Shown here: positions 12,498 to 41,195 of the stretch, piece by piece | How positions within the stretch are numbered: the first letter of the stretch is position 1 | How the letters are laid out: each line of letters begins with the position of its first letter | Virus record (IMG/VR): IMGVR_UViG_3300018475_000125 | Strand: one strand, 5' to 3' | Length of the DNA stretch: 64,000 nt | DNA from: a virus | The notes under the pieces: generated by a model | What the model saw: only the letters and a program-made list of their open reading frames with translations | Told to the model about the DNA's origin: nothing | Databases searched by the model: none | Made by a program: the position numbers and the translations under genes

Positions 12498-12503
12498 ATA
12501 GGG

Positions 12504-23916: not shown

Positions 23917-26142
23917 TTACTTACTGTTATCACTCAGATCCAGCGGTTCCAGTGTTTCGTAATCTGCCTGATTCAGCCGGTTGCGTTTCAGGAAGAGGAC
24001 GACATCGCCGAGGATCTCGAAGAGTTTTTTGAGGTTGGCTTCCAGTTCCGGCAGGTTCTTGGGACCATAGATCTCCTTGAACTGATCGCCTTTCCAGTAA
24101 AAGCGGAAGAGGAGGTCTCCTGCTTCCGTCATGGCGCGAGTCAGTTCTGCGGTCTGCTCGTCGATCATGGAGTCTGTATCACCGGAGGTGTAGAGACTCT
24201 TGAGCATGGAGACATCGAAGATGTCTTTCTGTCCGCTCTGGATCGCCTTATTGACCGCCGCGACATCCTGCGACGCATAGTCGGAGTCGATCGAAATGTA
24301 AGGATCAGCTGAGACATCGTGAGATTTTGTAGTGGAGTATTCCTGCCCGGAAGGGCCTGCTGCCAGACGGTCAGTCAGGATGCCGACAGGGGAATCGTTG
24401 ACCTGCGGGATCGGCGGCGTGACCAGTTCCGCCCGCTTCAGGAAGACTTTACAGGCGCGGGTCGGTTCTGCTCCCGCTTTTTTTAGCAGAGCCTTTGCGG
24501 TTTTTTCGCGAAGTCCGTAATCCTCGACCAGCGATTTGAAACCTTCAAAAGTACTGATCCGGGGACCCTGGTTCAGGCGGCATTCGTCGCCCCAGACGGA
24601 GACTTTCAGCGGTTCCAGTCCGGCATAGGCGGATTCCTTGATCTTCTGTGCTTTTACTGCCTGAGGAAGCTGGTCCAGACCGTTACTTTTCTGGATCAGA
24701 TCCGAATTCAGGTGCAGGTCCAGCAGTTTCATATCCTTGGGAAGTTCCATTGTGTGCTTTGAGACACGGAAGTCGCTTCCTTTCGGAGTTCTGCGTATCG
24801 TCCATTCCATAGAGCGGCAATTATGCCGGTAGCCGTCGTTATACCCGTAGCCGTAGCGCAGCGGAGGTTCTTCCTGTGTTTCGGTTTTGCAGATGATACC
24901 TCTTGTGTAATTATTGAACGGACCATGTACTTCACAGCATCCGCGAAGGACCGCGAAGCAGTCGCTGGGACTGCCGAACGGAAGATTATCGACCCATTTC
25001 ACATAGTCGGCTGTCGGATATTCTTTCGTGCACCAGATCTCGGTCCCGGCGCACTCGCAGTATTCATGACTGGACGGGTTCACGACCAGCATAAAGGGAC
25101 CTTCCGCATCGGAAGAGCGCAGAACGACCATACGGCGGGATTTGCCGGGTTCTACCAACACGTCGTAGATGCCGGTGCCTCTCGGGTTGAAAATGTTTGC
25201 CTTGTTTCCGGAAGCGTCGATGACTTTGGTAACTTCCTCGTCACGGCGGTCATCCTGAACAAGGTATCCTTCCCGCAGCAGCTTTTCTTTTTCTTTATCG
25301 GAGAGTCCGAAGGGGAGAGACGAACCAGAGATGGAAACGGAATAAGAAATGACCTGTACGGAGTTGGCGTATTTGACGTTCGGCTCCGGGAGCGGTTTTA
25401 CTCTCAGCGCAGCGGATTTCCGAAGAATATCACGTTCCGTGAATTCCCGCCGAAGAGCATCGGTTCCTCCGGGGTGGACCTGTTCAAAGGCGGCTTTGAT
25501 CAGCGGATAGGTATCCAGCATTTCCAGTGTGCGCTTCAGCCCGCCGTAGGACGCATATTTGATATGACGAAGCGGATTCAGCTTTTGATGAAGCGAAAAG
25601 GCTTTCTTAGCGAGACTGAATTTGGAATTCCGGGCAATATCCCGGTAGACCGCGTGCCATTCGCGCGGAATGGCAGAGGCGTACTTGGTCGGGATGTCTA
25701 CCAGATCGGTCAGATCCGGTGTGGAAGAACCGGGTGTGGATTTCGGAGCACTGTCGCCGATCATCATCGGCTTTCGGCGAAAGATCTCATTAAGCCACGC
25801 TTCTTTCAGCGGCACCCACAAGTTCTGATCTGCCAGCCGCAGAAGTTCGTGTCCCTTGATCTCTCCGTTGATGCAGAAGGTCGGCGAGAAGAGCTGCATA
25901 CCGTTTACTTTGAATCCGGTCACGCCCAGCACTTTTGTGTCGTCCTCATTTCTCTCCACGACCTGAAAGCCTTGTTCGTACGGCATCAGTGACGGTGCTT
26001 TATCCTGTAGATAGGTATGAGTGAGCTGCCCGAACATTTCTTCCAGCGGAACATCGTTTCCATCACCTCCGAGGGCGGCAGTTTTGTTCAGTACGCGGTT
26101 CCGGATCGATGTTTTCAGTGTATAAGTATCCTTTGTTCGCAT
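23917..26142 (-). CDS. large hypothetical virion protein (741 aa; portal-sized, unassigned)
   Basis: Long ORF. Start chosen at the internal Met (MRTKDTYTL...) preceded by GGAAGAAATT. No motif recognised. Confidence 0.4.
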   Translation of the reverse strand: MRTKDTYTLKTSIRNRVLNKTAALGGDGNDVPLEEMFGQLTHTYLQDKAPSLMPYEQGFQVVERNEDDTKVLGVTGFKVNGMQLFSPTFCINGEIKGHELLRLADQNLWVPLKEAWLNEIFRRKPMMIGDSAPKSTPGSSTPDLTDLVDIPTKYASAIPREWHAVYRDIARNSKFSLAKKAFSLHQKLNPLRHIKYASYGGLKRTLEMLDTYPLIKAAFEQVHPGGTDALRREFTERDILRKSAALRVKPLPEPNVKYANSVQVISYSVSISGSSLPFGLSDKEKEKLLREGYLVQDDRRDEEVTKVIDASGNKANIFNPRGTGIYDVLVEPGKSRRMVVLRSSDAEGPFMLVVNPSSHEYCECAGTEIWCTKEYPTADYVKWVDNLPFGSPSDCFAVLRGCCEVHGPFNNYTRGIICKTETQEEPPLRYGYGYNDGYRHNCRSMEWTIRRTPKGSDFRVSKHTMELPKDMKLLDLHLNSDLIQKSNGLDQLPQAVKAQKIKESAYAGLEPLKVSVWGDECRLNQGPRISTFEGFKSLVEDYGLREKTAKALLKKAGAEPTRACKVFLKRAELVTPPIPQVNDSPVGILTDRLAAGPSGQEYSTTKSHDVSADPYISIDSDYASQDVAAVNKAIQSGQKDIFDVSMLKSLYTSGDTDSMIDEQTAELTRAMTEAGDLLFRFYWKGDQFKEIYGPKNLPELEANLKKLFEILGDVVLFLKRNRLNQADYETLEPLDLSDNSK

Positions 26143-26241
26143 AATTTCTTCCGTATTACAGATGCCTGATTTGCGCGGCATGAAGCCTACAGCACGACGT
26201 ATAATTGCGCAGTATACCTGTTTTCCGGGAAAAGGACAAAA

Positions 26242-26931
26242 TCAGTCCTCAAACAGGTCACGCAGGTTATTTACCCGGATCTCCGGATCCAGAGAAAAGT
26301 AAAGGCTTGGCTTCGGCAGCGTGCGCTGGACACGTTTCTGGAGTACCCACGAATTTACAATATCCGCGCAGTCCATCCACTTGTCCAGAGCACGCTGGGA
26401 CCAGCCTGTGAAGATCTTGAGCTCTTTCAGAAGCCAGGCCAGTTCATAAAGCTGATCCGGAGTAATGTGGCGGACGCGAATATCCTCGGTCAGGGACAGG
26501 ATCGACGACAGCACTCGGCATAGCGCGGCTATTTTTACGACGTCGGTCCCCTGTGCCAGCTGGTTTGTGTAGCGGGGGATACGCTGATCCGACGGCATGC
26601 GCATATCCGGGTTCAGAATGAGTGCGGCGCCTGCGACTTCGATATGTGACCGCAGCATGACTGTTTCAAACGGGAGTCCGGTGTATTGCTGCGCCAGTGA
26701 AAGGAGTGCGGTATGCCATGTGACCTCTGCCAGTTCGGAGACTTCCGGATGCAGTATTTCATAGCCCGGACGGTAGCGGGAACGAAAAACCTCTTCCGTG
26801 AGGTCAGCAGTATCGATCACGAAAGAGGCGAGAGGTTTCCCGCAGTCCGCGATCCTTGAGTTGAGGAGCTCGCGGACAAAACGGGTATTTTCGGAACGGG
26901 ACAACCGGGGACGTGTGTTTTTGTTTTCCAT
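26242..26931 (-). CDS. hypothetical protein (229 aa)
   Basis: ORF only. Confidence 0.4.
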   Translation of the reverse strand: MENKNTRPRLSRSENTRFVRELLNSRIADCGKPLASFVIDTADLTEEVFRSRYRPGYEILHPEVSELAEVTWHTALLSLAQQYTGLPFETVMLRSHIEVAGAALILNPDMRMPSDQRIPRYTNQLAQGTDVVKIAALCRVLSSILSLTEDIRVRHITPDQLYELAWLLKELKIFTGWSQRALDKWMDCADIVNSWVLQKRVQRTLPKPSLYFSLDPEIRVNNLRDLFED

Positions 26932-26967
26932 ATATCACTCTTTCAGGCAAAAGCCCGCCAGAGCGTA

Positions 26968-27390
26968 TCAGGCACGTTCCAGCCAGGCGTTCAGTTCTTC
27001 TTCAATGATTTTGGCGCTCTTGGCACCGACCTTATCCAGAGCTTCGAGCGTCGCGCCGGTGTTGAGATAAGCGGTCAGCTGTTCGATCGTCTGGATGCTG
27101 TTAGCACCAAGGTTCCGGATGGAGGCAGCCGAAAAGCCGGCGGATTCCAGTGTTGTGCCGGCGGCTGCTTCCTGTTTCACTTCTTCGGCAGCTGGTACTT
27201 CGATAACTGCTTCCTGTTTGACTTCTTCCACAGCAGGGGCTTCGATGACCGGCTCCTGTTTGACTTCTTCGGCAGCCGCCGGAGTTTTCGAAGCGTCCGT
27301 TGTGTTGACTTCCAGCAGGTTCAGGTCTTTGCGCTTCAGGAAGCGGATCCCGTACCGGAAAGGGGCTTTGGCTTTGCAGCTCTGAATCAT
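26968..27390 (-). CDS. RNA polymerase alpha-subunit C-terminal-domain-like (HhH) protein with EEVKQE repeats
   Basis: The C-terminal 60 aa (LESAGFSAASIRNLGANSIQTIEQLTAYLNTGATLEALDKVGAKSAKIIEEEL) follow the alpha-CTD helix-hairpin-helix pattern (LELSVRSANCLK..I.T.GDL......ELL...N.G.KSL.EI). Three acidic (A)EEVKQE(A/P)VIE(A/V)PA repeats lie upstream. Confidence 0.4.
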   Translation of the reverse strand: MIQSCKAKAPFRYGIRFLKRKDLNLLEVNTTDASKTPAAAEEVKQEPVIEAPAVEEVKQEAVIEVPAAEEVKQEAAAGTTLESAGFSAASIRNLGANSIQTIEQLTAYLNTGATLEALDKVGAKSAKIIEEELNAWLERA

Positions 27391-27543
27391 AATATTAATC
27401 CTTTTGAATAAATGACTTGCCCTGCAAAGCCTTTACCTTTATTATGGAAGGATAGACTTCTCTGTCAAGGGCGTGAATAAATTCCGATTTGTCAGAATTT
27501 TCAGGATACGTTAAAGTATCAATGTAACGTAAGGTTTCACTAT

Positions 27544-29268
27544 TTGCAAACAGGAGCCGGAATGTCTCAGATTTCCTATATTCGACCGGGCGAGCCGGTC
27601 AGTGCGAGTGTCGCGAACCGACCGGTCAAAGGACTGGCGAATCAGGTCGAGGCGCTGGATCAGGCAATGTCTTCCGCGTCTTTAGGGGAATTGCTGATCC
27701 TCCGGGATATGCCGGTGTCGGAAGATGTCCGCACAGGGATGCCAGTCTATTGGGACGCACTGGAAAGCCGGTTCTGTCCCGCGAGATCCGGAGCGCGGAT
27801 GAACTGCCGGACGGGCGAGTTTGAGTCAGAAGCCTGCACGGACTGCATGGGGCTGGTAAAGGCCAAGCATACCGAGTCCTCCGGAGACATTCTTCTGTTC
27901 GGAGTGACGGACCTTCCTCAGATCCGCGATTTTCTTCCGGAAGGGACAGGGCGGTTCTATCTCGGGACCGACGCGGGAAGTTTGACGTTCACTCCAGGAA
28001 CGATCCAGGCACCGATCGGTGTTTTAATGGGACCTTCCGATCCCTGTGACGAACGGACCCGTGTTTACGTCAACCCGGAGTTTGCCGGCAAACTGACCGG
28101 GCATCATCATTACCGTCATGTTTTGAAACCGGAGAACTGGAAAGCCGCTTCGGAGTTTGCGAATGCTCCCTCAACTGCTGTCTATGCTTACGACATCGAG
28201 AGCGACCCAGACCTGAAGCGTGTCTTTCCCCCGGTCCCTCTTCAGGCGTGCTCCTGCACGATCGACTGGAACGGCAAGACCGATGATGCCTCTGCAATTG
28301 AAGAAACATTTGGCGGACGCGAGATCCCGGTCAATGAGGAGAATTCTTTGATCCGCATCGACTGCTCCGGGATATGGTGGATGTCCTCCGAAATAAGTCC
28401 CTTCGCGCCAGAGACCATGCTGAATGACGAGTCTTGGCGGGGCTTTCGGATCACCCTCCATTTCTCGCGCACCGCCTTTGAGAATTCCAAAGTCTATGTG
28501 ACCTCTCTCCAGCCGGACGAGGATCAGCCGTTTGAGTTTGTGGACTGTCACGGCGACATTGCTTCTACCGGCGAGCTTTTCATTCGATTTACGCTTGGGC
28601 ACCGGTTCCGGAACGCGGAACTTCTTTCCGGTTCAGCTTTAAGCCGGATCAGTGAGGACTGGTATCAGGAACAGGTACCGGTCATTCACGGGATCCGTTC
28701 GACTTCCCGGAATCTGCTCGTTAAGGGAAGTCTTGAGTTTGAGCAGGATCAGAAAGTCTGGCAGCGGGGTCTTCTTGAAGTGACCGCCAGCCCCTATTCC
28801 GAAGACTTTGAACTTCAGCCGCAGATCGTAAAATTGTCTGAGGCGCTTGAAAGTGAGTATTACCAGATACAATATCTTGCACTTCCGTACTCCAGAACCA
28901 GCGCGGTATCCATGAAGATGGAGATACCCGGTAAATTTGGTACGGATCTGAATGTGAGGATGCGGCTGACCTGTCTGGCAAAGCTGGCAGGTCTTTATCC
29001 GGAGATGCAGCTTCACTGCATCCGGCTTCCGCGTCCCGCCGGTGAGACGGTCTCCCTCCCGGCGCACATTACGCCTCAACAGGTCGGGCTGGAGAGTTCC
29101 GTCTCCGTAGAAGCCGACACCCTTTTCGAACTTGAGAGTCAGTCCATACGTGTCAGCGAGGGTGACACTCTGATATGGATCCTGCGCCGTCCGGCTTCCG
29201 CCTCCTATGCTTCGGATGTTGGGCTGGTCCGTATGACAGGCATTTTGAATTCAGGAGATATTTCATGA
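27544..29268 (+). CDS. hypothetical structural protein (574 aa)
   Basis: First gene of the + strand morphogenesis block, after a divergent intergenic region. Confidence 0.4.
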   Translation: MQTGAGMSQISYIRPGEPVSASVANRPVKGLANQVEALDQAMSSASLGELLILRDMPVSEDVRTGMPVYWDALESRFCPARSGARMNCRTGEFESEACTDCMGLVKAKHTESSGDILLFGVTDLPQIRDFLPEGTGRFYLGTDAGSLTFTPGTIQAPIGVLMGPSDPCDERTRVYVNPEFAGKLTGHHHYRHVLKPENWKAASEFANAPSTAVYAYDIESDPDLKRVFPPVPLQACSCTIDWNGKTDDASAIEETFGGREIPVNEENSLIRIDCSGIWWMSSEISPFAPETMLNDESWRGFRITLHFSRTAFENSKVYVTSLQPDEDQPFEFVDCHGDIASTGELFIRFTLGHRFRNAELLSGSALSRISEDWYQEQVPVIHGIRSTSRNLLVKGSLEFEQDQKVWQRGLLEVTASPYSEDFELQPQIVKLSEALESEYYQIQYLALPYSRTSAVSMKMEIPGKFGTDLNVRMRLTCLAKLAGLYPEMQLHCIRLPRPAGETVSLPAHITPQQVGLESSVSVEADTLFELESQSIRVSEGDTLIWILRRPASASYASDVGLVRMTGILNSGDIS

Positions 29269-30254
29269 TAGGCTTATGGAATGTCAACTGGCTGAACCAG
29301 AACTCGCAGCGTTCCTACCCGCTCTCGGACGCAGGCGATAAATGCTCCAGCCTGAGTCCGGATGTCCGTATCCCGGATGACTTTCTTCTGGCGCTTCGGC
29401 TTTCGGTGCATACCGGGCACGATGTCCGCCCGGAGAAGTTTTTTCTGAAGTCGCTGGTCGTTTCTCCTGCCGGATGCACAGTTGCTTTTGGTTATGACGA
29501 CGGGACCGAGTTCGGTCAGGATGCTGCGGTGTGCAGCCTTTCCGCTTCGGAAGAGATCCAGAACTGCCGCCTTTCCGGAGTAGGAAACTTCGAGGATGCC
29601 GTTGGCTATGCGGCATTTAACGGGCAGTGTCCTCTTCTGCGTTCTTTGTCCGGTTACTACTCTTTCTATCCAGCCTCTTCTTATGTCGAGCAGGATTGTG
29701 TCGTGCCGATGCTTCGCGGGGTCTCTTCCGTGCGGGTCAGTGACGGGACTTCCGTTTCGGAGCGGTACTACGGCGACATTGAGATTGTTGAGGGGAGTAA
29801 TGTGCAGATACTTACCGAGCCGACTTCAGACGGCGCGAAGATCATCATTAACGCGCTGGATACTTCCGGATTCAGTACGACGGATGATAAAGACTGTATT
29901 TGCGATCTGAACAAAGAAGATATTCCGATCACCAGTATCGGAGGCGCCTATCCGGGCGCGGACGGTTCGGTGAATTTTGTCGGTTCCGGCTGTCTGGCGA
30001 TCACCGGCTCTGGAAATACGCTGACCTTCTCGGACACCTGCGCGGAACCGGACTGCGGCTGTACGGAATTGGAATCGCTGGCGGCTTCCATAAAGGAGAT
30101 GGAAGACGGCATTGCCGGACTGAACCGCTTTCTGGAATCGCTGTATGAAGTCCTCTTAAGTACCAACGCTGCGGTAACGAGCAGCAATAAAGGCGGCGGC
30201 TGTTCGACCACTTTGACAGACCCCGCATCCCTTCCCGAGATCATACCCTACTGA
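29265..30254 (+). CDS. hypothetical tail/baseplate-associated protein (N-terminal WN..N..RSYP motif)
   Basis: ATGA overlap with the upstream gene. RBS GGAGATATTTC. The N-terminal motif is shared with gene 53418..53744. Confidence 0.4.
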   Translation: MIGLWNVNWLNQNSQRSYPLSDAGDKCSSLSPDVRIPDDFLLALRLSVHTGHDVRPEKFFLKSLVVSPAGCTVAFGYDDGTEFGQDAAVCSLSASEEIQNCRLSGVGNFEDAVGYAAFNGQCPLLRSLSGYYSFYPASSYVEQDCVVPMLRGVSSVRVSDGTSVSERYYGDIEIVEGSNVQILTEPTSDGAKIIINALDTSGFSTTDDKDCICDLNKEDIPITSIGGAYPGADGSVNFVGSGCLAITGSGNTLTFSDTCAEPDCGCTELESLAASIKEMEDGIAGLNRFLESLYEVLLSTNAAVTSSNKGGGCSTTLTDPASLPEIIPY

Positions 30255-30278
30255 TCTGTTATTAATAGCGTAAGTTAT

Positions 30279-30305
30279 ACCGCCGGCATATTCGGCGGTT
30301 TTTTA
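30279..30305 (+). terminator. rho-independent terminator
   Basis: ACCGCCG gcatatt CGGCGGT followed by T6. Confidence 0.75.
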
Positions 30306-30336
30306 TTATAAAATCAGATTCTCATCTGCCGACCTC

Positions 30337-30364
30337 TTGAAACTTTTGTTAAATGTATTATAAT
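30337..30364 (+). promoter_or_regulatory. sigma-70-like promoter (TTGAAA-N16-TATAAT) driving the ATPase/HNH cassette
   Basis: TTGAAA at 30337..30342 and TATAAT at 30359..30364 in an AT-rich island. A GAGGTG RBS lies 6 nt before the ATG at 30399. Confidence 0.55.
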
Positions 30365-30398
30365 GATTATATATGTTTGAAAATAGTCGAGGTGTATC

Positions 30399-31673
30399 AT
30401 GCTTAAGTCGATTCGACTGGAAAATGTGGGTCCGACGCCCGCGTTAACACTGGAATTTGGCTCCAGATTAAATATATTTACAGGGGATAATGGGCTGGGG
30501 AAATCCTTCCTTTTGGATATAGTATGGTTTACTCTGACCCGTTCCTGGCCGGCGGAAGTAAATCCGCGCATAACATCTGGCTTTCCGGCGAGGCTGCACA
30601 CTCCAGGGGAGCCGGCAAAGATACATTTTTCAATGAAGTCGGATCGCATTCGCAGCGGAGAATACACTTATCGTGAAGATGCCTGGGTACCCAAGACCGG
30701 ACGTCCTCATATGCCTGGACTGGTTGTCTATGCACACGTAGACGGTAGTTTCTCTGTATGGGATCCCATGAAAAATTACTGGCAGGATGACGACAGAGAG
30801 CGCAGGCTTCTGCGAACGCGTGCCTTCGTTTTTTCCCCAAGAGACGTGTGGCAGGGGTTAGGTACCAAAACTGTACGATACTGTAATGGCCTGCTGCAGG
30901 ACGTTTACGATTGGCAAAAAGACGCAGACTGGAAGATCAGCATTTTTAATGAGATTCTGGAGATCCTTTCTCCGGCGGACTGTATCTTGAGACTGGGGAC
31001 TCCTGCGAAAATGTCCGTGATGGATACACGCAACATCCCCACACTCGTAATGCCGTATGGCGAGGTTTCCGTACAGCTGGCATCTGCGGGGATTCGACGA
31101 ATTCTATCCTTGGCATATCTTCTGACGTGGACTTTGACGGAGCATGACAGGAACAGCAAACTTCTCGGAAAGGACCCAGTGAGACAGGTCACTTTTCTTA
31201 TGGATGAAGTCGAAGCGCACTTACACCCGCAGTGGCAGAGAAAGATCCTGAATGGACTGCTGGCGGTCTCCGCAAAGACTCTCTCGTCTCCGCTTCAGAT
31301 CCAATACTTTTTGGCTACGCACTCTCCGCTGGTCATGACGTCCTTGGAACCCGTGTTCGACGCCGCAGCCGACAAGTGGTTTGATTTTGAATTAGGAGCA
31401 GATGGCGCAGTATACGTTACAGCAGAGACTTTTGAGAAAAAAGGGGACGCGAATCAGTGGCTTCAGAGTGAGGCGTTTGATCTGGATTCCACGTACTCAC
31501 TTGAAACGTCTGCAGTCATGTCCCGTATGCGGGAATTGATCAACGCGCCTTTAGTAGACCCGTCCGCAGTCAAGGAGCAGTATCAGGAGCTTCTTCGCGT
31601 GCTGCCGGTAAACGATACGTTTCTACTTCGGCTTCAGGCTGTTTGTGCTGCGAAAGGAATTGCTTTGATATGA
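30399..31673 (+). CDS. ABC/SMC-like ATPase (AAA_15/AAA_21 family), Septu PtuA-like
   Basis: N-terminal IRLENVGP...LNIFTGDNGLGKSFLLD (Walker A), FLMDEVEAHLHPQWQ (Walker B/Q), LATHSPLV (H-loop). Confidence 0.6.
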   Translation: MLKSIRLENVGPTPALTLEFGSRLNIFTGDNGLGKSFLLDIVWFTLTRSWPAEVNPRITSGFPARLHTPGEPAKIHFSMKSDRIRSGEYTYREDAWVPKTGRPHMPGLVVYAHVDGSFSVWDPMKNYWQDDDRERRLLRTRAFVFSPRDVWQGLGTKTVRYCNGLLQDVYDWQKDADWKISIFNEILEILSPADCILRLGTPAKMSVMDTRNIPTLVMPYGEVSVQLASAGIRRILSLAYLLTWTLTEHDRNSKLLGKDPVRQVTFLMDEVEAHLHPQWQRKILNGLLAVSAKTLSSPLQIQYFLATHSPLVMTSLEPVFDAAADKWFDFELGADGAVYVTAETFEKKGDANQWLQSEAFDLDSTYSLETSAVMSRMRELINAPLVDPSAVKEQYQELLRVLPVNDTFLLRLQAVCAAKGIALI

Positions 31674-32284
31674 TACCTGTACATCCCCAGCCGGAACCTG
31701 TTCATTTTGATACGGAAGTACGCAAGAAAGGAAGTTTGTGGCTGCTGGAAAATCCGGACGCAAAGTCCGAGAAATTGCCTCCGTACTGGCGGAAGGTCAA
31801 CGAAGCGTTGTGGAGTGCGTACGGAGGGGTGTGTGCCTACCTCGCGGTATATTTTGAATTCGTGACCGGTGCCTCTACAACAGACCATTTTATCCCTAAG
31901 TCGGTAGAGCCGTCATTGGCTTATGAGTGGAGTAATTACCGGCTATCCTCTTTGGGGGCAAACAGGCGAAAGGGTGTGTCTGTAATATTGGACCCGTTTG
32001 ACCTGGAATCAGAATCCTTCTTTCTGGATATTCTGACGGGAGCAGTGTACCCCAATCCTGAAAAGGCACCGGACTATAAACATAGATGTGAGGAGACGAT
32101 CCAGACATTAGGACTGAACGATGCGAGGTGCATCAGTATGCGGTTGGAACATATCCAACAGTATCTTACTTGCGTAGTCTCCGAGGCGTACCTTCAGGCA
32201 AAGTCGCCTTTTGTCTATTACGAGCTTCGACGACAGCGGGTGGTACCTGTCGCCGCGGTACCTCCGGAAGTGTTTACATTATGA
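31670..32284 (+). CDS. HNH endonuclease, Septu PtuB-like partner of the ATPase
   Basis: ATGA overlap with the ATPase stop. HNH core TDHFIPKS...YEWSNYRLSSLGANRRKG (DH ... N ... N..K). Confidence 0.6.
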   Translation: MIPVHPQPEPVHFDTEVRKKGSLWLLENPDAKSEKLPPYWRKVNEALWSAYGGVCAYLAVYFEFVTGASTTDHFIPKSVEPSLAYEWSNYRLSSLGANRRKGVSVILDPFDLESESFFLDILTGAVYPNPEKAPDYKHRCEETIQTLGLNDARCISMRLEHIQQYLTCVVSEAYLQAKSPFVYYELRRQRVVPVAAVPPEVFTL

Positions 32285-33802
32285 TTTAGTATTGTACTTT
32301 ACCGTCACATTCCGCGTATAGAAGACGGTCGTGCGGGAAGTGATCCCTTGTTCCGGGACGTAGGGTACGGAGAGCTTTTGAGAGGCAGCGTCGCGGTAGT
32401 TTTGTCCGGCGGGTCCCCAGGTTTCTGAGGTAAGGTGGATGCTGTCGATCTGCTGTCCGTCCGCGAGCAAAGGATGAAGAACGCGAATGAGTTCTGAGGT
32501 CAAAATGTATCCCGTAAAGCCGGTGCTGTCGATGTAGTTGGCTGCCGCGTGCTGAAGTTCCTCTTCGTTTCCAGCGTCTTTGGACAGTTGAAGCGTGACG
32601 GAGACCCAACAAGGGTAGGCGGATCGAACAAGCGCGTCTTCCGAGACCGGCATCAGAGCGCGGTCGTCAAAGATCTCCTGCGCGGTATGGACGTCCTTCT
32701 GTCCGGCGAAGGTAATATCGAAAGTTTTTGTGTCACCGACGTTTCCGGTAAGTGCTTCATCTTCGGTCTGAAAGCGCAGGTGGAGGATCTGTCCGGCAGT
32801 GAATCCGATCCCGCCGATGACCGTCTGTTCTGAGATCGGCCATGTGCGGTTTTCCAATGATGCCTGCACGGCTCGATAGCAGCCCGGACAGACTTCTGCA
32901 GGAACGGTGACTTCCCACTGTTCCAGACCGTTTCGGATACCGGTAAACATGGCCGGCAAAGGTACTGTTTGATATTCCAGCGCCGTTTTGACGTAAAGGT
33001 CCGCTTTTCCGCCGACGGAGACAGGGAAGATCGTAAGCTGATCCCGTGTCATCTCCTCATCGCCGAATCCGATCACGGACAGGCCGGTTAGTGTGTCGAT
33101 CTTCTGTCGCAGCAGCGCGGCTATCTGGAACCGGTTTCCCCAGCAGGGGGTAGCCATTCCTTCTGCCAGACGGCTGATCATGGCGGTGTTGCTTTCCTCA
33201 TCTCTTCCCGGTGTGAAGTCCTCTGCGGCCCACGCAGCCGTGACGGTTCCCAGATCAGTCAACAGCGTATCCCCTGCGGTAACAGGAGTCAGTATACCGG
33301 CGGTCTCTGCGGTCACAGAGACATTGTACAAAAAAGTACCGTCTTTTGCCGGTGTCAGCCGCGGTGTCTGATTCGATGTTGTGCTGCACACGACGACTGC
33401 TTCATTGACACGGTAGGTATCCGTTCCGAAAGTGAAGCGGGTGTCGCTGGGGATCAGGATCGCCAGATCGCGCTCGAACTGGAGCGTTACGGTTCCGGCC
33501 GTGAACATGGACCCTTTGCGGGAGACATTGTAGTTGGAGAGGATCTTATCAACGACGCTCTCATCAGCCAGCGTCGGGTCCTGCGTTACGGCAAGCAGAC
33601 TTTGAGCGGACTTGTAGCGGTCCAGTTCTGCGGAGGTCTTGGCTGACAGGATGGCGTGCAGGTAGAGCACGATGTCATGCAGTGCGCCTTTAGACACATC
33701 CAGCTCCGGCAGAGCCTCCTGCAGCAGCTGTGCCAGAAGCGTCTGTTTCTGTGCCACTGCTTCCGGAGTGAGTGTGTCCAGATTCTTCAGTTCGATACTC
33801 AT
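32279..33802 (-). CDS. hypothetical structural protein, possibly baseplate J-like (507 aa)
   Basis: Size and composition suggest a baseplate wedge-like protein (weak). The stop abuts the HNH gene stop, making the two genes convergent with no spacer. Confidence 0.3.
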   Translation of the reverse strand: MSIELKNLDTLTPEAVAQKQTLLAQLLQEALPELDVSKGALHDIVLYLHAILSAKTSAELDRYKSAQSLLAVTQDPTLADESVVDKILSNYNVSRKGSMFTAGTVTLQFERDLAILIPSDTRFTFGTDTYRVNEAVVVCSTTSNQTPRLTPAKDGTFLYNVSVTAETAGILTPVTAGDTLLTDLGTVTAAWAAEDFTPGRDEESNTAMISRLAEGMATPCWGNRFQIAALLRQKIDTLTGLSVIGFGDEEMTRDQLTIFPVSVGGKADLYVKTALEYQTVPLPAMFTGIRNGLEQWEVTVPAEVCPGCYRAVQASLENRTWPISEQTVIGGIGFTAGQILHLRFQTEDEALTGNVGDTKTFDITFAGQKDVHTAQEIFDDRALMPVSEDALVRSAYPCWVSVTLQLSKDAGNEEELQHAAANYIDSTGFTGYILTSELIRVLHPLLADGQQIDSIHLTSETWGPAGQNYRDAASQKLSVPYVPEQGITSRTTVFYTRNVTVKYNTKS

Positions 33803-34521
33803 ACTCGCTTGATCTCCAATCCGCTTTCTGTTGTGTTGATCTGTACTCTTGTCCCTGCTGCGGTTCCCGGACGCATTCCAAAGACCAGATGACCATAGGC
33901 ATCTGAATGAACGTGGTTGATACTTTTCAGGCAGACCTGCGGTTCCAGTTCTCCTGCGCAGTTTGCTCTTTTATGAAGTACTTCTCCCATCATATCGATC
34001 CGGATCACATTGTTTCCCATATGCCGCAGGTAGAGCCCGTCCGCCCCGACCAGCCAGACATCGCCGTGCATGGAGTCCTGTCCGGTCCCCAGCGAGGATG
34101 CGCCAATGACGCGGGAAGGTGTGTTGCACCGGGCTGCAAAGGATGCGGCTTCAGGATAAAAGGTGTATTCTCCCGTCTCGATGGAGGCCAGCCAGTTGAG
34201 CCGTACCTTTTCCGAAACGAGGCAGCCCATTCTTCTTTTGCGGTCATTCTGAAAGTAAAGCACATCCGGTATTGCCGTGCGGTCCAGTTCGCAGGAGGCG
34301 CTGTCAGCCTCCGACGTAACGGTCAGGACGATACGATTGTTCTGTACCTGGATCCTGGAAAGGTACGGCATTCCTTCCGGGAAACAAAGCCCCGCATCCA
34401 AAAAAATATTCTCCGGAATCACCAGCGTTCCGGTTACATCAGTCAGGGTCGCCGTATCCATGAACGGATACCGGGTCTTCTCATACTGGTCCCTGAATTC
34501 CTGAAAAATTACTCTTGGCAT
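33799..34521 (-). CDS. hypothetical structural protein (240 aa)
   Basis: Start at the Met preceded by GAAGGAGATCT. The ORF-track start is further upstream. Confidence 0.4.
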   Translation of the reverse strand: MPRVIFQEFRDQYEKTRYPFMDTATLTDVTGTLVIPENIFLDAGLCFPEGMPYLSRIQVQNNRIVLTVTSEADSASCELDRTAIPDVLYFQNDRKRRMGCLVSEKVRLNWLASIETGEYTFYPEAASFAARCNTPSRVIGASSLGTGQDSMHGDVWLVGADGLYLRHMGNNVIRIDMMGEVLHKRANCAGELEPQVCLKSINHVHSDAYGHLVFGMRPGTAAGTRVQINTTESGLEIKRV

Positions 34522-34618
34522 AAGATCTCCTTCAGGCTGCAGTATACGCAACTTTTTCCGCATCTCCAACTTTTGGACGAAAGGCTTTTCGGAGGTAGGA
34601 TACGGCAAAGGAGAGCAT

Positions 34619-34999
34619 ATGAAAAACACATTCAGAATACGGGATGACCAGAGCATCTGGAACAAAAGCACGCTGGCGCACTTTCTGGACAATCGCCCGA
34701 TCAGCTTTGGAGAGCCGTCTCAGGACGATCTTCCGGAAACGGTCGTACCGCTGGAACTTTTGCGCGGACTGACGGGGCAGCATCTTTCGATCGTGCGCAT
34801 AAAGGATTCTGCCGAAACGCAGGACCTCTTCGCATTTCTGCCTTTGCTGAAGCATCTGGTGCCGGCCGGAAAGCAGCTGATCGTGTTCCGGGAGCTGGAA
34901 CCCTCGGAAGACCGGACGGAGCTCTCCTTCTTTGAAACGGACTTCATTGCGGAAGTCCTTGATGCAGAAGACAGACTTTCAGGAGCGGTGCACGAATGA
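34619..34999 (+). CDS. hypothetical protein (126 aa)
   Basis: RBS AAAGGAGAGCAT. Confidence 0.4.
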   Translation: MKNTFRIRDDQSIWNKSTLAHFLDNRPISFGEPSQDDLPETVVPLELLRGLTGQHLSIVRIKDSAETQDLFAFLPLLKHLVPAGKQLIVFRELEPSEDRTELSFFETDFIAEVLDAEDRLSGAVHE

Positions 35000-36696
35000 T
35001 CGAACGCTGTATTAAAACGAATCTCGGAAATAACCTGCTGAATATTGATGTGGTGGAGTACACCACGATGTTTCCGGGTGAGAGCAAGGCGGTCAACGTA
35101 CCCAAAGGCGATTACCGGAATTTTGTAGGCGAGGATCTCTGTACACCGATCGAAGGCGTTACCGAGAGTATCGAGATCCCTGCCGTGCCGCGCGTGGATC
35201 CGATGGCTCCAACAGCCAGTACGATACCGATCCCGGAGGCAGTCATTGCTTCGATCCTTCCCTGCGAGCAGGAAGGCTATTATCCTTGCCCTGAGATCTA
35301 CCTCTACAACACGCTTCTGGACCCGGAAGATGAGGGAGATCAGGAGACCTTTGAGAAGTACGCGGAGGATGATCAGGTCATTCCTGTGAAGTGGGAAACG
35401 GAGGATATTGAGCTGGAAGGGGAACTTCTGGTGAAGCTGGACGCGCAGTCTGTCTGCTGCTGTGAAGCTATCGAGAATGAGGATCCGGAGGACCATATCG
35501 ATATGTTTCAGATCCAGGGCTGGCGTCCGGGAAGCGGCTGCGTTCGCCGAAGGGAATACAAACTGCGCGCGGTCCCGATCAATGAAACACCTTGCTACAG
35601 CGTGCATCAGCTGGTGCTGGACTGGGAAGACAAGATCTGCGGCAAGAAAGTGGATGAAGGCACGGAGCCGCTGATGCCGCCGGAGTTCCAGATCCAGCAG
35701 GAAGACTTGCAGAGTAAAGAGCTTTTCTCGACAGAGGAGCCTTTTTCTGTAATTTTGGGTCCTTTTACGAAGATCCTTGGAGACGGGACGGGCCAGGAGT
35801 CTACACTTACATTTCCGCATATGCAGTATACGATCGACTGCGGCAGAACGACAGTGGAAGAAGTCGGCTCCAGCTCCATTTCTCTGGGGAAGATCGACTA
35901 CAGCCGGCTTATTAACGTGCCGGAGCATTACGCGAAACCGATCGTAAACTCTCCCTGCGAGTGCTTCTACGCTTATGACATTTACTACGGCGCGGAAGCA
36001 GTTGGGCGAGTCATCAATGAAAATCTGGAAGTTTATGCGGACGGCGAAGGCGGGTACCTGTGCCCTACGACAGGAATTTTACGGCTTACGAATGTGACGC
36101 AAACGGAAACTGGAGCTGTCTGTCCGACCGAGTACAACCTGGAGTTCCGCTGCGGAAGACTGGTATCCTGGGAACCGTATACTCAAGCACCGCCTACCGT
36201 ACTGACGACGGAAACGGTCTCAAACGTTACGGCCTCGGACAATATCCTGACGCTTAAACGAGACGAACTGGAATTCTGCGGCGGCATCTATACCGACAAA
36301 AATCCGGCATCTGACATCAAGGCCGTGTTCACCCTGGAAAAGGAAGAGGCGTCAGGAACTGAAAAAACGTTAGAGACAAGTATGGCGGGTGCCGGCGCGT
36401 TTGATTTAGATTGCGAGCTGTCGCTTACCTACACTGCGGAAGAGATCGAGATCCCGGTAGGCAGTCCTACGATAGAAGGCTGCACCTTAACCTGGGAGAC
36501 CAGAACGCTGAAGGTGATCACCGGTGTTGCTTTGAAGGCAGACGGTGTCGGCTTTGGTGAAAATGGAAATACTGTAAGGCTGACAGCTTCCGGCATACTT
36601 GCGGCGCACAAGCACACGGTAGAACTGCCCGCGCAGGGTGAACACACGCACAAAATCGTGATCAACGTGCAGAAGGAGGAGCAGGAAAATGCCTGA
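34996..36696 (+). CDS. hypothetical structural protein (566 aa), acidic, Cys-containing
   Basis: ATGA overlap with the upstream gene. No recognised domain. Confidence 0.4.
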   Translation: MIERCIKTNLGNNLLNIDVVEYTTMFPGESKAVNVPKGDYRNFVGEDLCTPIEGVTESIEIPAVPRVDPMAPTASTIPIPEAVIASILPCEQEGYYPCPEIYLYNTLLDPEDEGDQETFEKYAEDDQVIPVKWETEDIELEGELLVKLDAQSVCCCEAIENEDPEDHIDMFQIQGWRPGSGCVRRREYKLRAVPINETPCYSVHQLVLDWEDKICGKKVDEGTEPLMPPEFQIQQEDLQSKELFSTEEPFSVILGPFTKILGDGTGQESTLTFPHMQYTIDCGRTTVEEVGSSSISLGKIDYSRLINVPEHYAKPIVNSPCECFYAYDIYYGAEAVGRVINENLEVYADGEGGYLCPTTGILRLTNVTQTETGAVCPTEYNLEFRCGRLVSWEPYTQAPPTVLTTETVSNVTASDNILTLKRDELEFCGGIYTDKNPASDIKAVFTLEKEEASGTEKTLETSMAGAGAFDLDCELSLTYTAEEIEIPVGSPTIEGCTLTWETRTLKVITGVALKADGVGFGENGNTVRLTASGILAAHKHTVELPAQGEHTHKIVINVQKEEQENA

Positions 36697-37156
36697 ACTG
36701 GATCTGCGGAATATCTGTCCTGAAGGAAACATCACCTTTAATGGAGAGGTGATCGACTGCGGGTGTGAAGAGCAGGAATGCTACAGCAGAGGAATGACGT
36801 GCGGCTGCTGCGGAAATTTCTCGTACCTGGACAAGTCCGTGACTTGGTCGGATTTTACTGCTGGGCTGGTTTCCTGTCCCATTGAAGGCTGTGGGAAGAC
36901 AACTAAAGGTCAACCCCCCGTTGCCCTGGACTGCTCCTCTCCGGCAGTCAGTGATGCGTACTCTACGTTTCATGAGTTTGGATCTGGTGTGTGTCGTGGA
37001 CTGAACCGAAACTCCGGATACTATGAAATGTTCGACGATGCCTGCGAGGCCCTACAGCACTGTGACGCGGATACGATACTGGATTGGTGCGGGAACAGGC
37101 TCAGTGATGCGGACGTCGAGTGGTGCAGACGTCAAGCGATGCAGACAATAGAATGA
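36689..37156 (+). CDS. Cys-rich hypothetical protein (155 aa)
   Basis: About 18 Cys, including CGCEEQEC and CGCCGN. Confidence 0.4.
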   Translation: MPELDLRNICPEGNITFNGEVIDCGCEEQECYSRGMTCGCCGNFSYLDKSVTWSDFTAGLVSCPIEGCGKTTKGQPPVALDCSSPAVSDAYSTFHEFGSGVCRGLNRNSGYYEMFDDACEALQHCDADTILDWCGNRLSDADVEWCRRQAMQTIE

Positions 37157-37162
37157 GGGTCT

Positions 37163-37522
37163 ATGAATTGTAATTTTCAACAGCGGGATGAAAAGTATGC
37201 GGTCTGCACTGCCTGCGGCAGAAAGATCCGCGCTCATTTGGTGGGTCACGTCGCGGTAAAATGCCGCGGTACATCGAAACCTTCTCTCTTAAATCAGGCG
37301 GCGAACTACGCGAAAGCGGTCACGCAGCATGTTTTAACAGGAAGTCAGACAAGGACAGACGAGGAAGTCTCCGAGCTGATGCAGCTGTGTGAGTCCTGTG
37401 AACACTATGACCAGCAGATCGGACGGTGCGGCGTCTGCGGCTGCCGGTGCAATAAAAGCAAAAGCGCGTGGCTCAACAAGCTGAGAATGGCTTCCCAGCA
37501 TTGCCCGAAAGGAAAATGGTAA
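37163..37522 (+). CDS. Cys-rich putative zinc-binding protein (119 aa)
   Basis: CTACG...CESCEH...CGVCGCRC...CPKG; multiple CxxC pairs. Confidence 0.4.
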   Translation: MNCNFQQRDEKYAVCTACGRKIRAHLVGHVAVKCRGTSKPSLLNQAANYAKAVTQHVLTGSQTRTDEEVSELMQLCESCEHYDQQIGRCGVCGCRCNKSKSAWLNKLRMASQHCPKGKW

Positions 37523-38196
37523 TGACAGATAAATGTGTGAAAAACCCGACTTCGGTCGAAGAACTTTTTTCGGCGTGGGATGCTCCGGAGGATATGACTT
37601 CCCGCTGGGAGTGCCCGGATACCCGCTGGCAAAGTTCTCCCAGTGCTCTCACAGACCTGATCGCACAGATCTTACAGCAATACTTTTCGGATCCGCTTAA
37701 CTTCACGAATGATGAGCTTCGTGCCCTGATCCAGTCGCAGAAGCCCTTTGTGACGCAGATGACGCACATCGATCCGAAGAATGCCGGACAGCTTCCAAAG
37801 ATCGCGGTGGAGTTCACCGGTTCTCAGCAGGATGAACGACGATTTGGTCGTGATAATCAGATAGACTATAATATCCGCAACAGTACTGGAACCTTCTTTA
37901 CCGTCTGGCGTGTTCAGCTGCGCGTTGACATCATTGCTAAAAACAAACGGGAGGCGATCCTGTTGGGTGAGTCCGTCTGTCGGCTGTTCAACCATCATCG
38001 GACGACTGTCATGCAGATGCTCGCAGCGTATGATCTTGTTATTTCCCAGTTCCAGGGAGCTCAGGTTCTGGGAGAGGACGCAGCCAACGGTTTCCAGACC
38101 AGTCTTGGTCTGGTGATCACCGCGCCGGATAAATGGTATCTCTCAGAAGCAGCTCCAAGACTCAAACGTATCAGTAACTCTATATATAGGGAATAA
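37516..38196 (+). CDS. hypothetical protein (226 aa)
   Basis: RBS AAAGGAAA then ATG. Overlaps the upstream stop. Confidence 0.4.
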   Translation: MVMTDKCVKNPTSVEELFSAWDAPEDMTSRWECPDTRWQSSPSALTDLIAQILQQYFSDPLNFTNDELRALIQSQKPFVTQMTHIDPKNAGQLPKIAVEFTGSQQDERRFGRDNQIDYNIRNSTGTFFTVWRVQLRVDIIAKNKREAILLGESVCRLFNHHRTTVMQMLAAYDLVISQFQGAQVLGEDAANGFQTSLGLVITAPDKWYLSEAAPRLKRISNSIYRE

Positions 38197-38198
38197 TT

Positions 38199-41195
38199 AT
38201 GGCTTATGTAAAACCTCAAGTGCTGGTGTTCCAGGAGTTCACCAACGCGGCAGCCTCTATCGCTGCAGACCTCCCTGCCTGGATCGTCGGGCAAAATGCC
38301 GAGATCCATGAACGCGGCGAGGCAGTGGTGGGGGACTACGCGGACTATCGCGGAAGCAACGTGGATACGGTCCTTCCGAATCTCTCTGCAGGAAGCAAGG
38401 TCGAGGAGGATTCGGTACATATTTACGTCGATGACGCTCTCATTCAGTATTGTGAGATTCCGGCGGCAGATACGGCAGCGGAGGATGCTGTGTATGCTTA
38501 CTGCATGACAGAAGCTCCGAATCAGCTGGTCTTCAATAACTTCAATGTAAAGGAGAACGGCAATTTTGCCCGTGCAGCTGAACTTGGAACTCGTGATGTG
38601 CAGATCGGTGATACGATCCGCATCTCTGGTTACGGTGCCGCGGTAGCAGGTGCTTCTGAGTGTGCCGAAGTTTCTTTCGATACCCGGGTCGTGGATTTTG
38701 CGGTGACGGTCGCAGACAGTACGATCATGGATCCGGCACGGAAGACTAACAAGGCAGGAACTTCTACGGCTTCCTGCTCGATCGCGTCCGCAGAACTGGG
38801 AACATATACTGGTTCTCTTGCGGAAGAGCATTATCAGGTATACGTAGACAAGAACAGCCTGACGTACTGGGTCGCTTCCGCATCCGATACGGATAACTAC
38901 CCGTCGAGTGCTGCAGCTATTCAGCAGCGGGATGGTAAATACATCTTCAAGATCGGAACTCAGGGAATGACCGCTTCGATCGCTGAGGCGGATCTTACTG
39001 GTGACTTCACTGTCTCTGTAACCAGTGGAACTTCAACTGCCTCGAATACGCCGTTCCGCACGGACCTTTACACCGGTCCGTATGAAGGCATCACACTGTC
39101 TGGCGAATACGATCCGCTTCCGACCGGTTTCCTGTCGCAGGTATACAAGATCACGGTCACTGGAAAGCATAACACGACTGCCTGTTCCAATCTGGAACTG
39201 CGCATCATCTCCGAAAGCGGTCTGGACAACCAGTACAAGGTACAGGCTCTTTCGGACGGAAGCGGCAATTTCACATTCAACGTGACTGGTGATGGAAATG
39301 TTACCGCGACGCTCACGGCAGAAGCCTTCGCGAACGTTACCGTCGGAACGCAGTGGGCCTACACGCTCACCGGCGCGTACAATCCGGCGAAACTTGTCGT
39401 GGATAAAGAGAAATCCAACTACAGCGGTGACGAGGATACCCTGTATATTATCAGCTGCATTTCCGGCGGCGAGATCACTACAGAGAGCACGGCGGAAAAG
39501 GCGCCTGTTCTTGCGTATCAGACACTTTCCGGCTCCGACTACCGTTCTGGGATCACAGTGGCGAAGGCAGGGCAGGCTATTGAAACAGCTTTGGGCTTGA
39601 ACTTCTCTTTTGAAGCCGGGCAGATCGCGTTGAATGAGACCTGGATCGTTCGGGTCCTTTCCGGAAAAAATACGGAAGTGCGTGCCCTGGTCCTGAGTGA
39701 CTCTTTGCCGCAGGAGATCCAGACGACTTCTGAGATCATTCCGATCGGCGTGAAGTTCTGTGTTGTTCGTGATGTGGAACTGACAGAGGGTGTAGAGATC
39801 GACGGTACACAGCTTAAGATCGACACGCTTACTGCGAAAGTACACCTGGAAGAATTCCAGAGTATCTCCGGGCAGCTGATCGACCTCCAGATCCTTAGCG
39901 GCACTATCTCGGCTGCCTATCGTGAATGGGTAGCGGACGGTGTTGCTTCGATCAACTGGATCGCATCGATCAATGAACTGGAAGCCATTCCTGGGCCTTT
40001 GACTCCGGATAATCCGCTGAAGTATGCCCTTTACAAGGCGCTTTCCAACTCCAACGGCAGTCCGGTAGCGTATACCAATGTGCAGGACGATACGCAGGAT
40101 GGCTGGGCGGAAGCCTTTGGTGCCGCTTCCGGTTCCCGCGAAGTCTATGCACTGGCTCCGATCACGCAGGATATTAATATCCTGAAGTTAGCGGCGGCTG
40201 CCGTTCAGCAGGATTCTAATGAAGAGACCTGCGCCTGGAAGATCTGCTATCTCAACACAGCCGTTCCGGACAAGATCCAGGTCGTGGGACGAGATACCAG
40301 CTTCGACGGCAACTCCGTGATCGCGCTTATGAATACGAAGGGTCTGGTACAGATCACGTCGAAGTATCAGGCGAAGGCGAATGCTTCACTGGAAAGTGTA
40401 AAACCGGGCGATATTGTAAAGTTCTACACGGGCTTTAATTTTACGGAATATGTGATCGACAGTGTCTCCGGGGATACATTCAAAGTACAGAATCCTCCCG
40501 CAGCAGGAATCGTCGTTCCGTCGATTATCGAGATCGAACATACGCTTACGAAGAATGAGCAGGTCGAGTATATTGCGAATATTGCACAGAGTTTCGCGCA
40601 TCGGCGTGTGAACTTCATCTGGCCGGATGCGGTTAGTGAGGGGACGTACACACTTCCGGGAAGTATGCTTTGCGCGGCGGTTGCAGGACTCGCATCCGGT
40701 GTACTCCCGCATCAGGGACTGACCCGTGTCGCTGTTGCCGGATTTGACGGGCTGCTTCATACAGCCGGCTACTTTACAGAAACACAGCTGAATACGCTGG
40801 CAGAAGCAGGCGTCTGGATCGTGGTCCGTGATGACGACGGTACGATCTACACACGGCATGCCCGAACGACAGATGCTACGAGTTTGACTTATGCAGAAGA
40901 AATGATCACACGTAACGTGGACCACATTTCCTTCGCGATCCGTCAGCTTCTGGAACCGTACATTGGCGTAACGAACGTAACGGACGAGACGATCGGGAAT
41001 ATCCGAACGCGTTTGCTTTACTACCTGATGCACATCAGTGAGAACAGCTATTCGGCCGTCGGTCCTCAGCTTACCTGGTACCAGATCGTAGACATTTCGC
41101 AGGATCCTCTGCTTCTGGACCGCATCAATGTGATCGTCTCCGGTACAGTACCGAAGGCTGTCAATAATATTGAATTCCACATTCAGGCTGGCTGA
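38199..41195 (+). CDS. large virion protein, candidate major capsid protein with inserted domains (998 aa)
   Basis: Largest structural ORF, Thr/Ser/Gly-rich with repetitive beta-rich segments in the middle. The MCP assignment is by position and size only. Confidence 0.3.
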   Translation: MAYVKPQVLVFQEFTNAAASIAADLPAWIVGQNAEIHERGEAVVGDYADYRGSNVDTVLPNLSAGSKVEEDSVHIYVDDALIQYCEIPAADTAAEDAVYAYCMTEAPNQLVFNNFNVKENGNFARAAELGTRDVQIGDTIRISGYGAAVAGASECAEVSFDTRVVDFAVTVADSTIMDPARKTNKAGTSTASCSIASAELGTYTGSLAEEHYQVYVDKNSLTYWVASASDTDNYPSSAAAIQQRDGKYIFKIGTQGMTASIAEADLTGDFTVSVTSGTSTASNTPFRTDLYTGPYEGITLSGEYDPLPTGFLSQVYKITVTGKHNTTACSNLELRIISESGLDNQYKVQALSDGSGNFTFNVTGDGNVTATLTAEAFANVTVGTQWAYTLTGAYNPAKLVVDKEKSNYSGDEDTLYIISCISGGEITTESTAEKAPVLAYQTLSGSDYRSGITVAKAGQAIETALGLNFSFEAGQIALNETWIVRVLSGKNTEVRALVLSDSLPQEIQTTSEIIPIGVKFCVVRDVELTEGVEIDGTQLKIDTLTAKVHLEEFQSISGQLIDLQILSGTISAAYREWVADGVASINWIASINELEAIPGPLTPDNPLKYALYKALSNSNGSPVAYTNVQDDTQDGWAEAFGAASGSREVYALAPITQDINILKLAAAAVQQDSNEETCAWKICYLNTAVPDKIQVVGRDTSFDGNSVIALMNTKGLVQITSKYQAKANASLESVKPGDIVKFYTGFNFTEYVIDSVSGDTFKVQNPPAAGIVVPSIIEIEHTLTKNEQVEYIANIAQSFAHRRVNFIWPDAVSEGTYTLPGSMLCAAVAGLASGVLPHQGLTRVAVAGFDGLLHTAGYFTETQLNTLAEAGVWIVVRDDDGTIYTRHARTTDATSLTYAEEMITRNVDHISFAIRQLLEPYIGVTNVTDETIGNIRTRLLYYLMHISENSYSAVGPQLTWYQIVDISQDPLLLDRINVIVSGTVPKAVNNIEFHIQAG

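Follow-up and report, generated by a model that had tools for sequence, protein, structure and literature searches.

Stand-alone Septu systems of type I, which were reportedly described in Bacillus and E. coli by Doron et al. 2018 and are represented by the structures 8EE4/8EEA, consist of an ABC-type ATPase (PtuA) followed by an HNH nuclease (PtuB) in a two-gene operon without a reverse transcriptase or non-coding RNA. A pair of this kind is considered here in the viral record IMGVR_UViG_3300018475_000125, of which a stretch of 64,000 nucleotides (nt), hereafter the window, was analyzed. The segment 30255..32284 of the window is very probably a horizontally acquired, self-contained cassette of the moron type that encodes a genuine stand-alone type I Septu.

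Descriptions of the stand-alone Septu mechanism (PMC12819146) and of its nuclease activity and mutants (PMC13096335) are available, and Septu EcB88 loses its defence when the Walker A/B residues K43 and D316 of PtuA or the PtuB residues H75 and N91 are mutated (PMC13096335). The HNH activity has been reported as DNA nicking in one characterized system and as cleavage of tRNA-Tyr in another (PMC12819146, PMC13096335), and the reported activator of stand-alone Septu is a phage tail-fibre protein (PMC12819146). A homologous ATPase-nuclease pair is found in type I-A retrons (Ec78/Eco7, Ec83), where PtuA has acquired an N-terminal extension or helical flap (PMC12819146). Septu is also carried by phages: a DefenseFinder survey detected it in 17 cultured phage genomes, mainly of Lambdavirus, within a set of defence-system carriers that are mostly temperate lambdoid phages and of which 85% hold a single system (bioRxiv 10.64898/2026.05.06.722914), and it has likewise been seen in gut myoviruses (bioRxiv 10.1101/2024.10.26.620412).

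Family assignment of the ptuA-ptuB pair

The initial annotation of this locus had proposed a PtuAB-like identity from short motifs, and profile searches bear the proposal out over the full length of both proteins. PtuA matches the PADLOC profile PDLC00307 (PtuA1/PtuA) with an E value of 3.5e-138 (residues 1-419 of 424, profile positions 1-420 of 424), and PtuB matches PDLC00348 (PtuB1/PtuB) with 1.2e-64 (residues 1-191, profile positions 1-192 of 198). Pfam places AAA_21 (9e-15) and AAA_15 (1.6e-12), both above cutoff, and also AAA_23 in PtuA, a protein that differs from its database copy by one residue (T17A); the Pfam search gave no match in PtuB, for which TIGR02646 (3.4e-12) falls just below its cutoff (46.6 vs 52.15 bits).

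The motifs on which the initial proposal was built are present in the translations and are strongly conserved. In PtuA, these are GDNGLGKS (residues 29-36, Walker A), DEVEAHLHPQ (269-278, Walker B), and ATHSP (306-310, H-loop), with the Walker A residues G29-K35, D269/E270, and H308 invariant across 20 homologues. In PtuB, DHFIPKS (72-78), N89, and NRRKG (98-102) supply the catalytic candidates D72/H73, N89, and N98, and C55, H73, N89, N98, and K101 are invariant across 28 homologues. The catalytic motifs of both proteins are thus intact, and a lack of HNH catalytic residues, which the initial annotation had named as a ground for giving up its proposal, was not encountered.

Predicted structures point in the same direction. 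When the AlphaFold2 model of PtuA (predicted local distance difference test (pLDDT) score 86.6) was compared with the PDB using Foldseek, the top 49 matches were all PtuA chains, the first being 8eea_D, the E. coli Septu PtuA chain (2e-18, template-modelling (TM) score 0.59); for the PtuB model (pLDDT 73), the top 12 were all PtuB chains (TM 0.5-0.6). Full-length PADLOC matches of both proteins, the order of the genes, the motifs, and the folds together place the pair in Septu type I. Membership of PtuA in a housekeeping family of SMC-like ATPases such as RecF, RecN, SbcC, or Rad50, the other outcome that the initial annotation had set against its own proposal, was not observed, there being no full-length, above-cutoff match: similarity to RecF, RecN, and Rad50 is confined to about 45 residues of the Walker A stretch (about residues 1-48; 9-25 bits vs cutoffs of 172-1087), and the Pfam SMC_N match scores 20.7 vs a cutoff of 40.

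Comparison with the nearest described systems refines this assignment. The window pair shares with stand-alone Septu the succession of ABC-type ATPase and HNH nuclease in a two-gene operon free of reverse transcriptase and non-coding RNA, and it conserves those Walker A/B and H-N-H residue classes on which defence by EcB88 depends. It departs from stand-alone Septu in its PtuA, which is shorter (424 amino acids (aa) vs 465-552 aa) and about 15-16% identical in structural alignment, in a PtuB without CxxC cysteines, and in its carrier, a large uncultured phage and not a bacterial chromosome. The top sequence and fold matches include solved PtuA and PtuB chains of type I-A retrons. An association with a retron was considered as a candidate; it was rejected, as the pair is flanked by a gene for a 329-aa phage protein and a baseplate J gene, with neither a reverse transcriptase nor an msr/msd RNA, and Rfam finds no hits in the window, the upstream spacer included. 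The NCBIfam equivalogs for retron Ec78 score 69 vs a cutoff of 500 for PtuA and 41 vs 150 for PtuB, and the PtuA model, unlike retron PtuA, gives no sign of an N-terminal extension or helical flap. Lastly, Gabija (GajAB) and PARIS (AriAB) likewise combine an ATPase of the AAA_15/AAA_21 class with a nuclease partner, and weak PADLOC matches to AriA were found (1e-18); however, these trail the PtuA match by more than 100 orders of magnitude, and the partner in the window is an HNH protein, not a Toprim/DUF4435 or helicase protein.

Cassette anatomy, empty site, and origin

The cassette carries its own predicted expression signals (Table 1), and most of what the initial annotation had said of them holds. 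The intergenic spacer (30255-30398, 144 nt, GC content 0.32) contains the terminator and the promoter. The terminator, which had been called strong, has a hairpin that folds at -13.9 kcal/mol (z = -2.3 vs shuffles), with a T run directly behind it; the preceding g568-g329 transcription unit ends here, and the terminator forms the left edge of the inserted segment. The TTGAAA-N16-TATAAT element in the AT-rich island is, in a scan of the whole window, among the two best sigma-70-like sites, the other lying before a restriction-modification operon at 60191 (-), and the GAGGTG ribosome-binding site also stands as described. The two genes are adjacent and co-oriented, ptuA preceding ptuB, and an ATGA start/stop overlap (31670-31673) couples ptuB translationally to ptuA.

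Two statements about the surroundings required adjustment. The downstream gene is indeed convergent and baseplate-like, and it does abut ptuB, but in place of the zero spacer originally given there is a 6-nt overlap between the baseplate J stop and the end of ptuB. Similarly, the placement of the cassette between tail and baseplate genes stands on the baseplate side, whereas the genes on the upstream side (27562..29268 and g329) match no Pfam or PHROG family. The lower local GC content that had been noted is real but modest, the cassette having a GC of 0.50 and a third-codon-position GC (GC3) of 0.53 vs 0.53-0.56 and 0.60-0.64, respectively, in the adjoining structural genes. Both flanking proteins retain intact C-termini in the window. 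A 13-residue C-terminal tail of PtuB was considered as a read-through into the phage flank created by the insertion, and this was rejected, given that the closest bacterial PtuB (from locus L017, see below) is also 204 aa long and has a similar tail.

Comparison with related phages, which had been suggested as a check at the outset, yielded an identifiable empty site. Twenty-four relatives of the baseplate J protein are detectable in a collection of 5.8 billion proteins, and the loci of five (L014, L015, L016, L026, and L027; 37-49% identity) were compared. In none of the five does tblastn detect PtuA or PtuB at E <= 1e-3. Homologues from both sides of the cassette (g741, g229, g568, g329, g240, baseplate J, and g126; 27-55% identity) are kept in L014, L015, L016, and L027; among these, the sheath homologue is found in L014-L016, as is g140, which is restricted to those three. 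In L026, the conserved genes are confined to the baseplate-J side (g240, baseplate J, g126, g566, and sheath), those upstream being different. In L014, the arrangement is convergent as in the window, the stop codons of g329 and baseplate J overlap in TTAA, and the C-terminus of g329 (...IIPY, then stop) is conserved between the two; with the flanking genes overlapping, L014 has no space equivalent to the terminator region of the window. The g329/baseplate J junction of L014 is thus an exact empty site. In L016 and L027, by comparison, g329, g240, and baseplate J run collinearly with little space between them, and the arrangement in L015 is also collinear; a two-gene inversion (g240 and baseplate J, 32279-34521) is therefore common to the window and L014, and the Septu cassette occupies the convergent junction that this inversion created. 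The segment accordingly shows the traits by which morons are recognized, namely a predicted promoter and terminator of its own, a site between conserved phage genes, relatives without it, and deviant composition.

The same relatives bear on the idea that the pair serves the DNA or RNA metabolism of the phage itself, either in degradation of the host genome or tRNA or in repair or packaging after the manner of SbcC, Rad50, or RecF. The N-terminal Walker A similarity of PtuA to RecF, RecN, Rad50, and SMC_N could be read in this way, the nicking of DNA or cleavage of host tRNA by Septu nucleases is in principle exploitable by a phage (PMC12819146, PMC13096335), and this phage has nucleotide-metabolism genes (NrdD, MYG1-like). 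The short and far sub-cutoff nature of those ATPase matches tells against the idea, as do the host-type promoter of a cassette that is not part of a phage operon and the five flank-keeping relatives that do without it, from which it follows that the cassette is dispensable for the life cycle of the lineage. A role in the phage's own metabolism is therefore judged quite improbable.

The nearest homologues of the captured pair lie in bacteria. PtuA homologues number in the thousands; the closest (L017) has 56% identity and is neighboured by a PtuB of 50% identity that aligns without gaps over the same 204 aa, and this pair resides on a bacterial-looking contig, where it is flanked by an oxidoreductase gene and by purD, with sugar-metabolism genes nearby. 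The next pair examined (PtuA 52% identity) lies in an island rich in toxin and helicase genes. In the L017 and L020 pairs, a PtuB of 204-205 aa follows PtuA in the same order, overlapping or abutting ptuA. More remote homologues, with about 45-48% identity, are encoded on the chromosomes of Pseudomonas, Dickeya, Pectobacterium, and numerous further bacteria, and the nearest homologues that bear a taxon label of any sort are annotated as Victivallales and Oligosphaeraceae. It follows from these bacterial contexts that ptuA and ptuB were acquired as a pair, and from bacteria. Neither megablast of positions 24000-40000 nor tblastn of PtuA returned anything from the GenBank phage collection, and scans of IMG/VR with baseplate J and PtuA returned only very distant loci (L001-L003). 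In one of these, L003 (UViG_2894682665_000002), a viral contig of 47 kb terminates in a gene for a PtuA-like ATPase (10001-11296; 34% identity, E 2e-72); it is possibly another virus-borne Septu-like gene, the contig ending before any PtuB.

The junction itself varies among relatives. At the equivalent position in L015 (5523-7138), there are three unrelated minus-strand genes (87, 71, and 230 aa), none with a Pfam match, which suggests that the 3' boundary of g329 is a recurrent site for accessory genes, a hotspot by position, since the L015 genes belong to no Pfam family. HNH homing endonucleases are common between phage structural genes, and the cassette might thus be viewed as a selfish mobile element in which PtuB is a free-standing HNH homing endonuclease with an accessory ATPase, cut into a baseplate-adjacent junction and kept there by homing or addiction, not by any protection from other phages. 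Weak PHROG matches of PtuB to HNH endonucleases (5e-5 to 5e-4), the variable junction, and the LAGLIDADG-domain intein in the same genome would agree with such an element. By contrast, the PtuB profile match is full-length and far stronger, PtuA accompanies PtuB in every case, the closest homologues reside on bacterial chromosomes and not at phage homing sites, no relative in the GenBank phage collection has a PtuA homologue, and a cassette with its own promoter and terminator is typical of morons and not of homing genes. A homing origin is consequently regarded as very improbable.

Several points weigh against the interpretation of the segment as an acquired type I Septu cassette. With regard to the proteins, only in its C-terminal ABC region does PtuA resemble solved PtuA proteins in sequence (E 6e-8 to 3e-5), and the similarity of PtuB to solved PtuB is not significant (E 0.05); the PtuB model is poor at the active-site loop (pLDDT <50 at residues 71-79 and 93-101); and PtuB is without the CxxC zinc-finger cysteines of the retron type (CAYL for CAYC), C55 being its only invariant cysteine. 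Moreover, to our knowledge, no member of the short PtuA subfamily (424 aa; PDLC00307/PDLC00348) has been functionally characterized. With regard to the insertion, the boundary search gave only short repeats at chance level, with no target-site duplication or terminal (inverted) repeats, and several other genes of the window are as GC-poor as the cassette, so that composition alone is weak, supporting evidence. The low direct similarity to solved proteins therefore marks a diverged, shorter Septu subfamily, and because this subfamily is uncharacterized and its similarity to solved proteins limited, target, trigger, and oligomeric state are extrapolated for it.

Carrier genome and second accessory cluster

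The carrier fits a large phage-type genome of roughly 170-187 kb. About 34 assembly blocks (JGI, ENA, and Logan) contain near-identical copies of the locus, on contigs that reach 170-187 kb, none longer; JGI 3300032167 Ga0224413_10000878 is one of the contigs of this length. The cassette is intact in all of the approximately 24 near-identical contigs that were read. The window encodes, in addition to baseplate J, a 998-aa tail sheath homologue and a weakly VgrG/DUF2345-like protein, while PHROG and Pfam scans of about 40 other open reading frames (ORFs) left most of these without a match and recognized no capsid, portal, terminase, or integrase.

Several further genes of the window were identified. 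A 1461-aa ORF (8112-12497) combines Rpb2 (beta) domains 3 and 6 with Rpb1 (beta') domain 2, which amounts to a fused, phage-type multisubunit RNA polymerase, and a protein with sigma-70 regions 3/4 is encoded at 42519-43274 (-). An 860-aa ORF (16693-19275) contains Hint and LAGLIDADG_3 domains, indicating that a phage gene harbours an intein which itself contains a homing endonuclease. NrdD (360-2003, Pfam 3e-160) and a radical-SAM activase-like protein (6643-7344) point to an anaerobic host, and a protein of the MYG1-like exonuclease family is encoded at 4973-6229. Among the relatives, L027 (baseplate J 38% identity) has a gene of the Phage_integrase family at 12147-13169, a few kb downstream of its baseplate and tail genes, and some members of the phage group may thus be temperate.

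A second cluster of accessory genes lies at the right end of the window (Table 1). A perfect TTGACA-17-TATAAT stands ahead of its methyltransferase gene, at 60191 (-). The ATPase has a full-length match to PDC-M56A, a candidate defence protein; the exact PDC-M56A protein was found only on short contigs (2-6 kb), and the left-hand neighbours of PDC-M56A differ in L022, which suggests a variable region. By predicted gene content, the carrier holds at least two further putative defence-type cassettes within the same 64 kb.

Table 1. Positions of the Septu cassette, its flanking genes, and the second accessory cluster in the window.
Feature	Position	Strand	Remarks
g329, conserved 329-aa phage gene	29265..30254	+	Left flank, outside cassette
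Intrinsic terminator-like hairpin with T run	30279..30305	+	8-bp stem, 6 G-C pairs (30279-30299)
Predicted sigma-70-type promoter, TTGAAA-16-TATAAT	30337..30364	+	11/12 vs TTGACA/TATAAT; consensus match only
Shine-Dalgarno-like GAGGTG	30389..30394	+	4 nt 5' of ptuA ATG, read from sequence
ptuA	30399..31673	+	424 aa, ABC-type (AAA_15/AAA_21) ATPase
ptuB	31670..32284	+	204 aa from ATG, HNH (beta-beta-alpha-Me) nuclease
Baseplate J/gp47-like gene	32279..33802	-	Right flank, outside cassette; Pfam Baseplate_J 2e-11 (above cutoff), phrog_6 baseplate wedge 6e-13; orthologues in L014-L016, L026, and L027
EcoRII-C-type restriction endonuclease	58026-59336	-	
C5 cytosine methyltransferase	59198-60142	-	PADLOC MTase_II/DrmMII about 1e-150
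SPFH/Band 7 protein	60587-61462		
AAA_15/AAA_21 ATPase	61728-62954		Full-length match to candidate defence protein PDC-M56A, 3.4e-122

The content of the window also bears on whether the pair is phage-borne in the strict sense, or whether the stretch is a prophage remnant, a tailocin, or a contractile-injection-system island in which Septu would be an ordinary host gene of a defence island. Such a chromosomal setting would accommodate the contig of one relative that was binned as a Planctomycetia metagenome-assembled genome, the integrase gene near the tail module of L027, the type II restriction-modification system and further defence-type ATPase at the right end of the window, and the want of a recognized capsid, portal, or terminase gene. 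It is at odds with the fused multisubunit RNA polymerase, the sigma factor, NrdD/NrdG, and the intein-bearing gene, with the fact that almost all ORFs of the window have no bacterial-family match, and with the recurrence of near-identical copies that never exceed 170-187 kb, as befits an independent genome; in addition, the most distant relative found is a 169-kb viral contig of IMG/VR. A chromosomal island therefore appears improbable, and the locus is treated below as a Septu cassette of a phage.

Proposed function and comparison with phage-borne defence

A mode of action may be proposed by analogy with other Septu systems. PtuA would oligomerize and sequester PtuB through the C-terminal helices of PtuA (PMC12819146, PMC13096335), and the complex would remain quiet in uninfected, ATP-replete cells, where ATP holds the nuclease in check. 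Activation would come from a component of a competing phage and would release HNH nuclease activity, and this activity could abort or slow replication of the competitor and so limit phage production. By this analogy, the benefit of the cassette is likely to be the exclusion of competing phages, which is the usual reading of phage-borne defence systems (bioRxiv 10.64898/2026.05.06.722914).

The anatomy of the locus further permits a proposal as to timing. A host-type sigma-70 promoter would allow expression by the host RNA polymerase early in infection, or in a carrier or lysogenic state, independently of the phage RNA polymerase. The minus strand has no predicted terminator-like site from the baseplate J stop (32279) back to the start of ptuA, the nearest lying at 30211-30196; late transcripts of the g240-baseplate J operon would for this reason run antisense over ptuB and ptuA, and such read-through could dampen the cassette late in infection. 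It is conceivable, although doubtful, that the carrier is a virulent, RNA polymerase-encoding large phage equipped with several immune cassettes driven by host promoters (Septu, EcoRII-type restriction-modification, and PDC-M56A), which would exclude co-infecting phages during lytic infection, the host polymerase turning Septu on early and antisense read-through from the baseplate operon shutting it off late. If true, this would amount to multi-layered immunity in a non-temperate phage, and the Septu trigger would have to tell the tail proteins of the carrier from those of its competitors.

The locus offers a clean natural case in which a phage has captured a bacterial immune system, and the empty site is identifiable in a relative. 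It leaves the understanding of Septu and of phage-borne defence in general unchanged, while adding a data point on how often, and where, non-lambdoid phages carry defence systems and making the short PtuAB subfamily available for functional work. The cassette resembles established phage morons and superinfection-exclusion determinants (Lambdavirus Septu, P2 Old, lambda RexAB, and phage restriction-modification systems) in its succession of promoter, genes, and terminator between conserved genes and in its absence from relatives. Phage-borne Septu is already documented, and the present case differs from it in details only, namely the carrier, the short PtuAB subfamily, and the second group of defence-type genes: the carriers reported so far are mostly temperate lambdoid phages, and this phage has a genome of about 170-190 kb, encodes its own RNA polymerase, and holds, by predicted gene content, at least two further defence-type cassettes within 64 kb.

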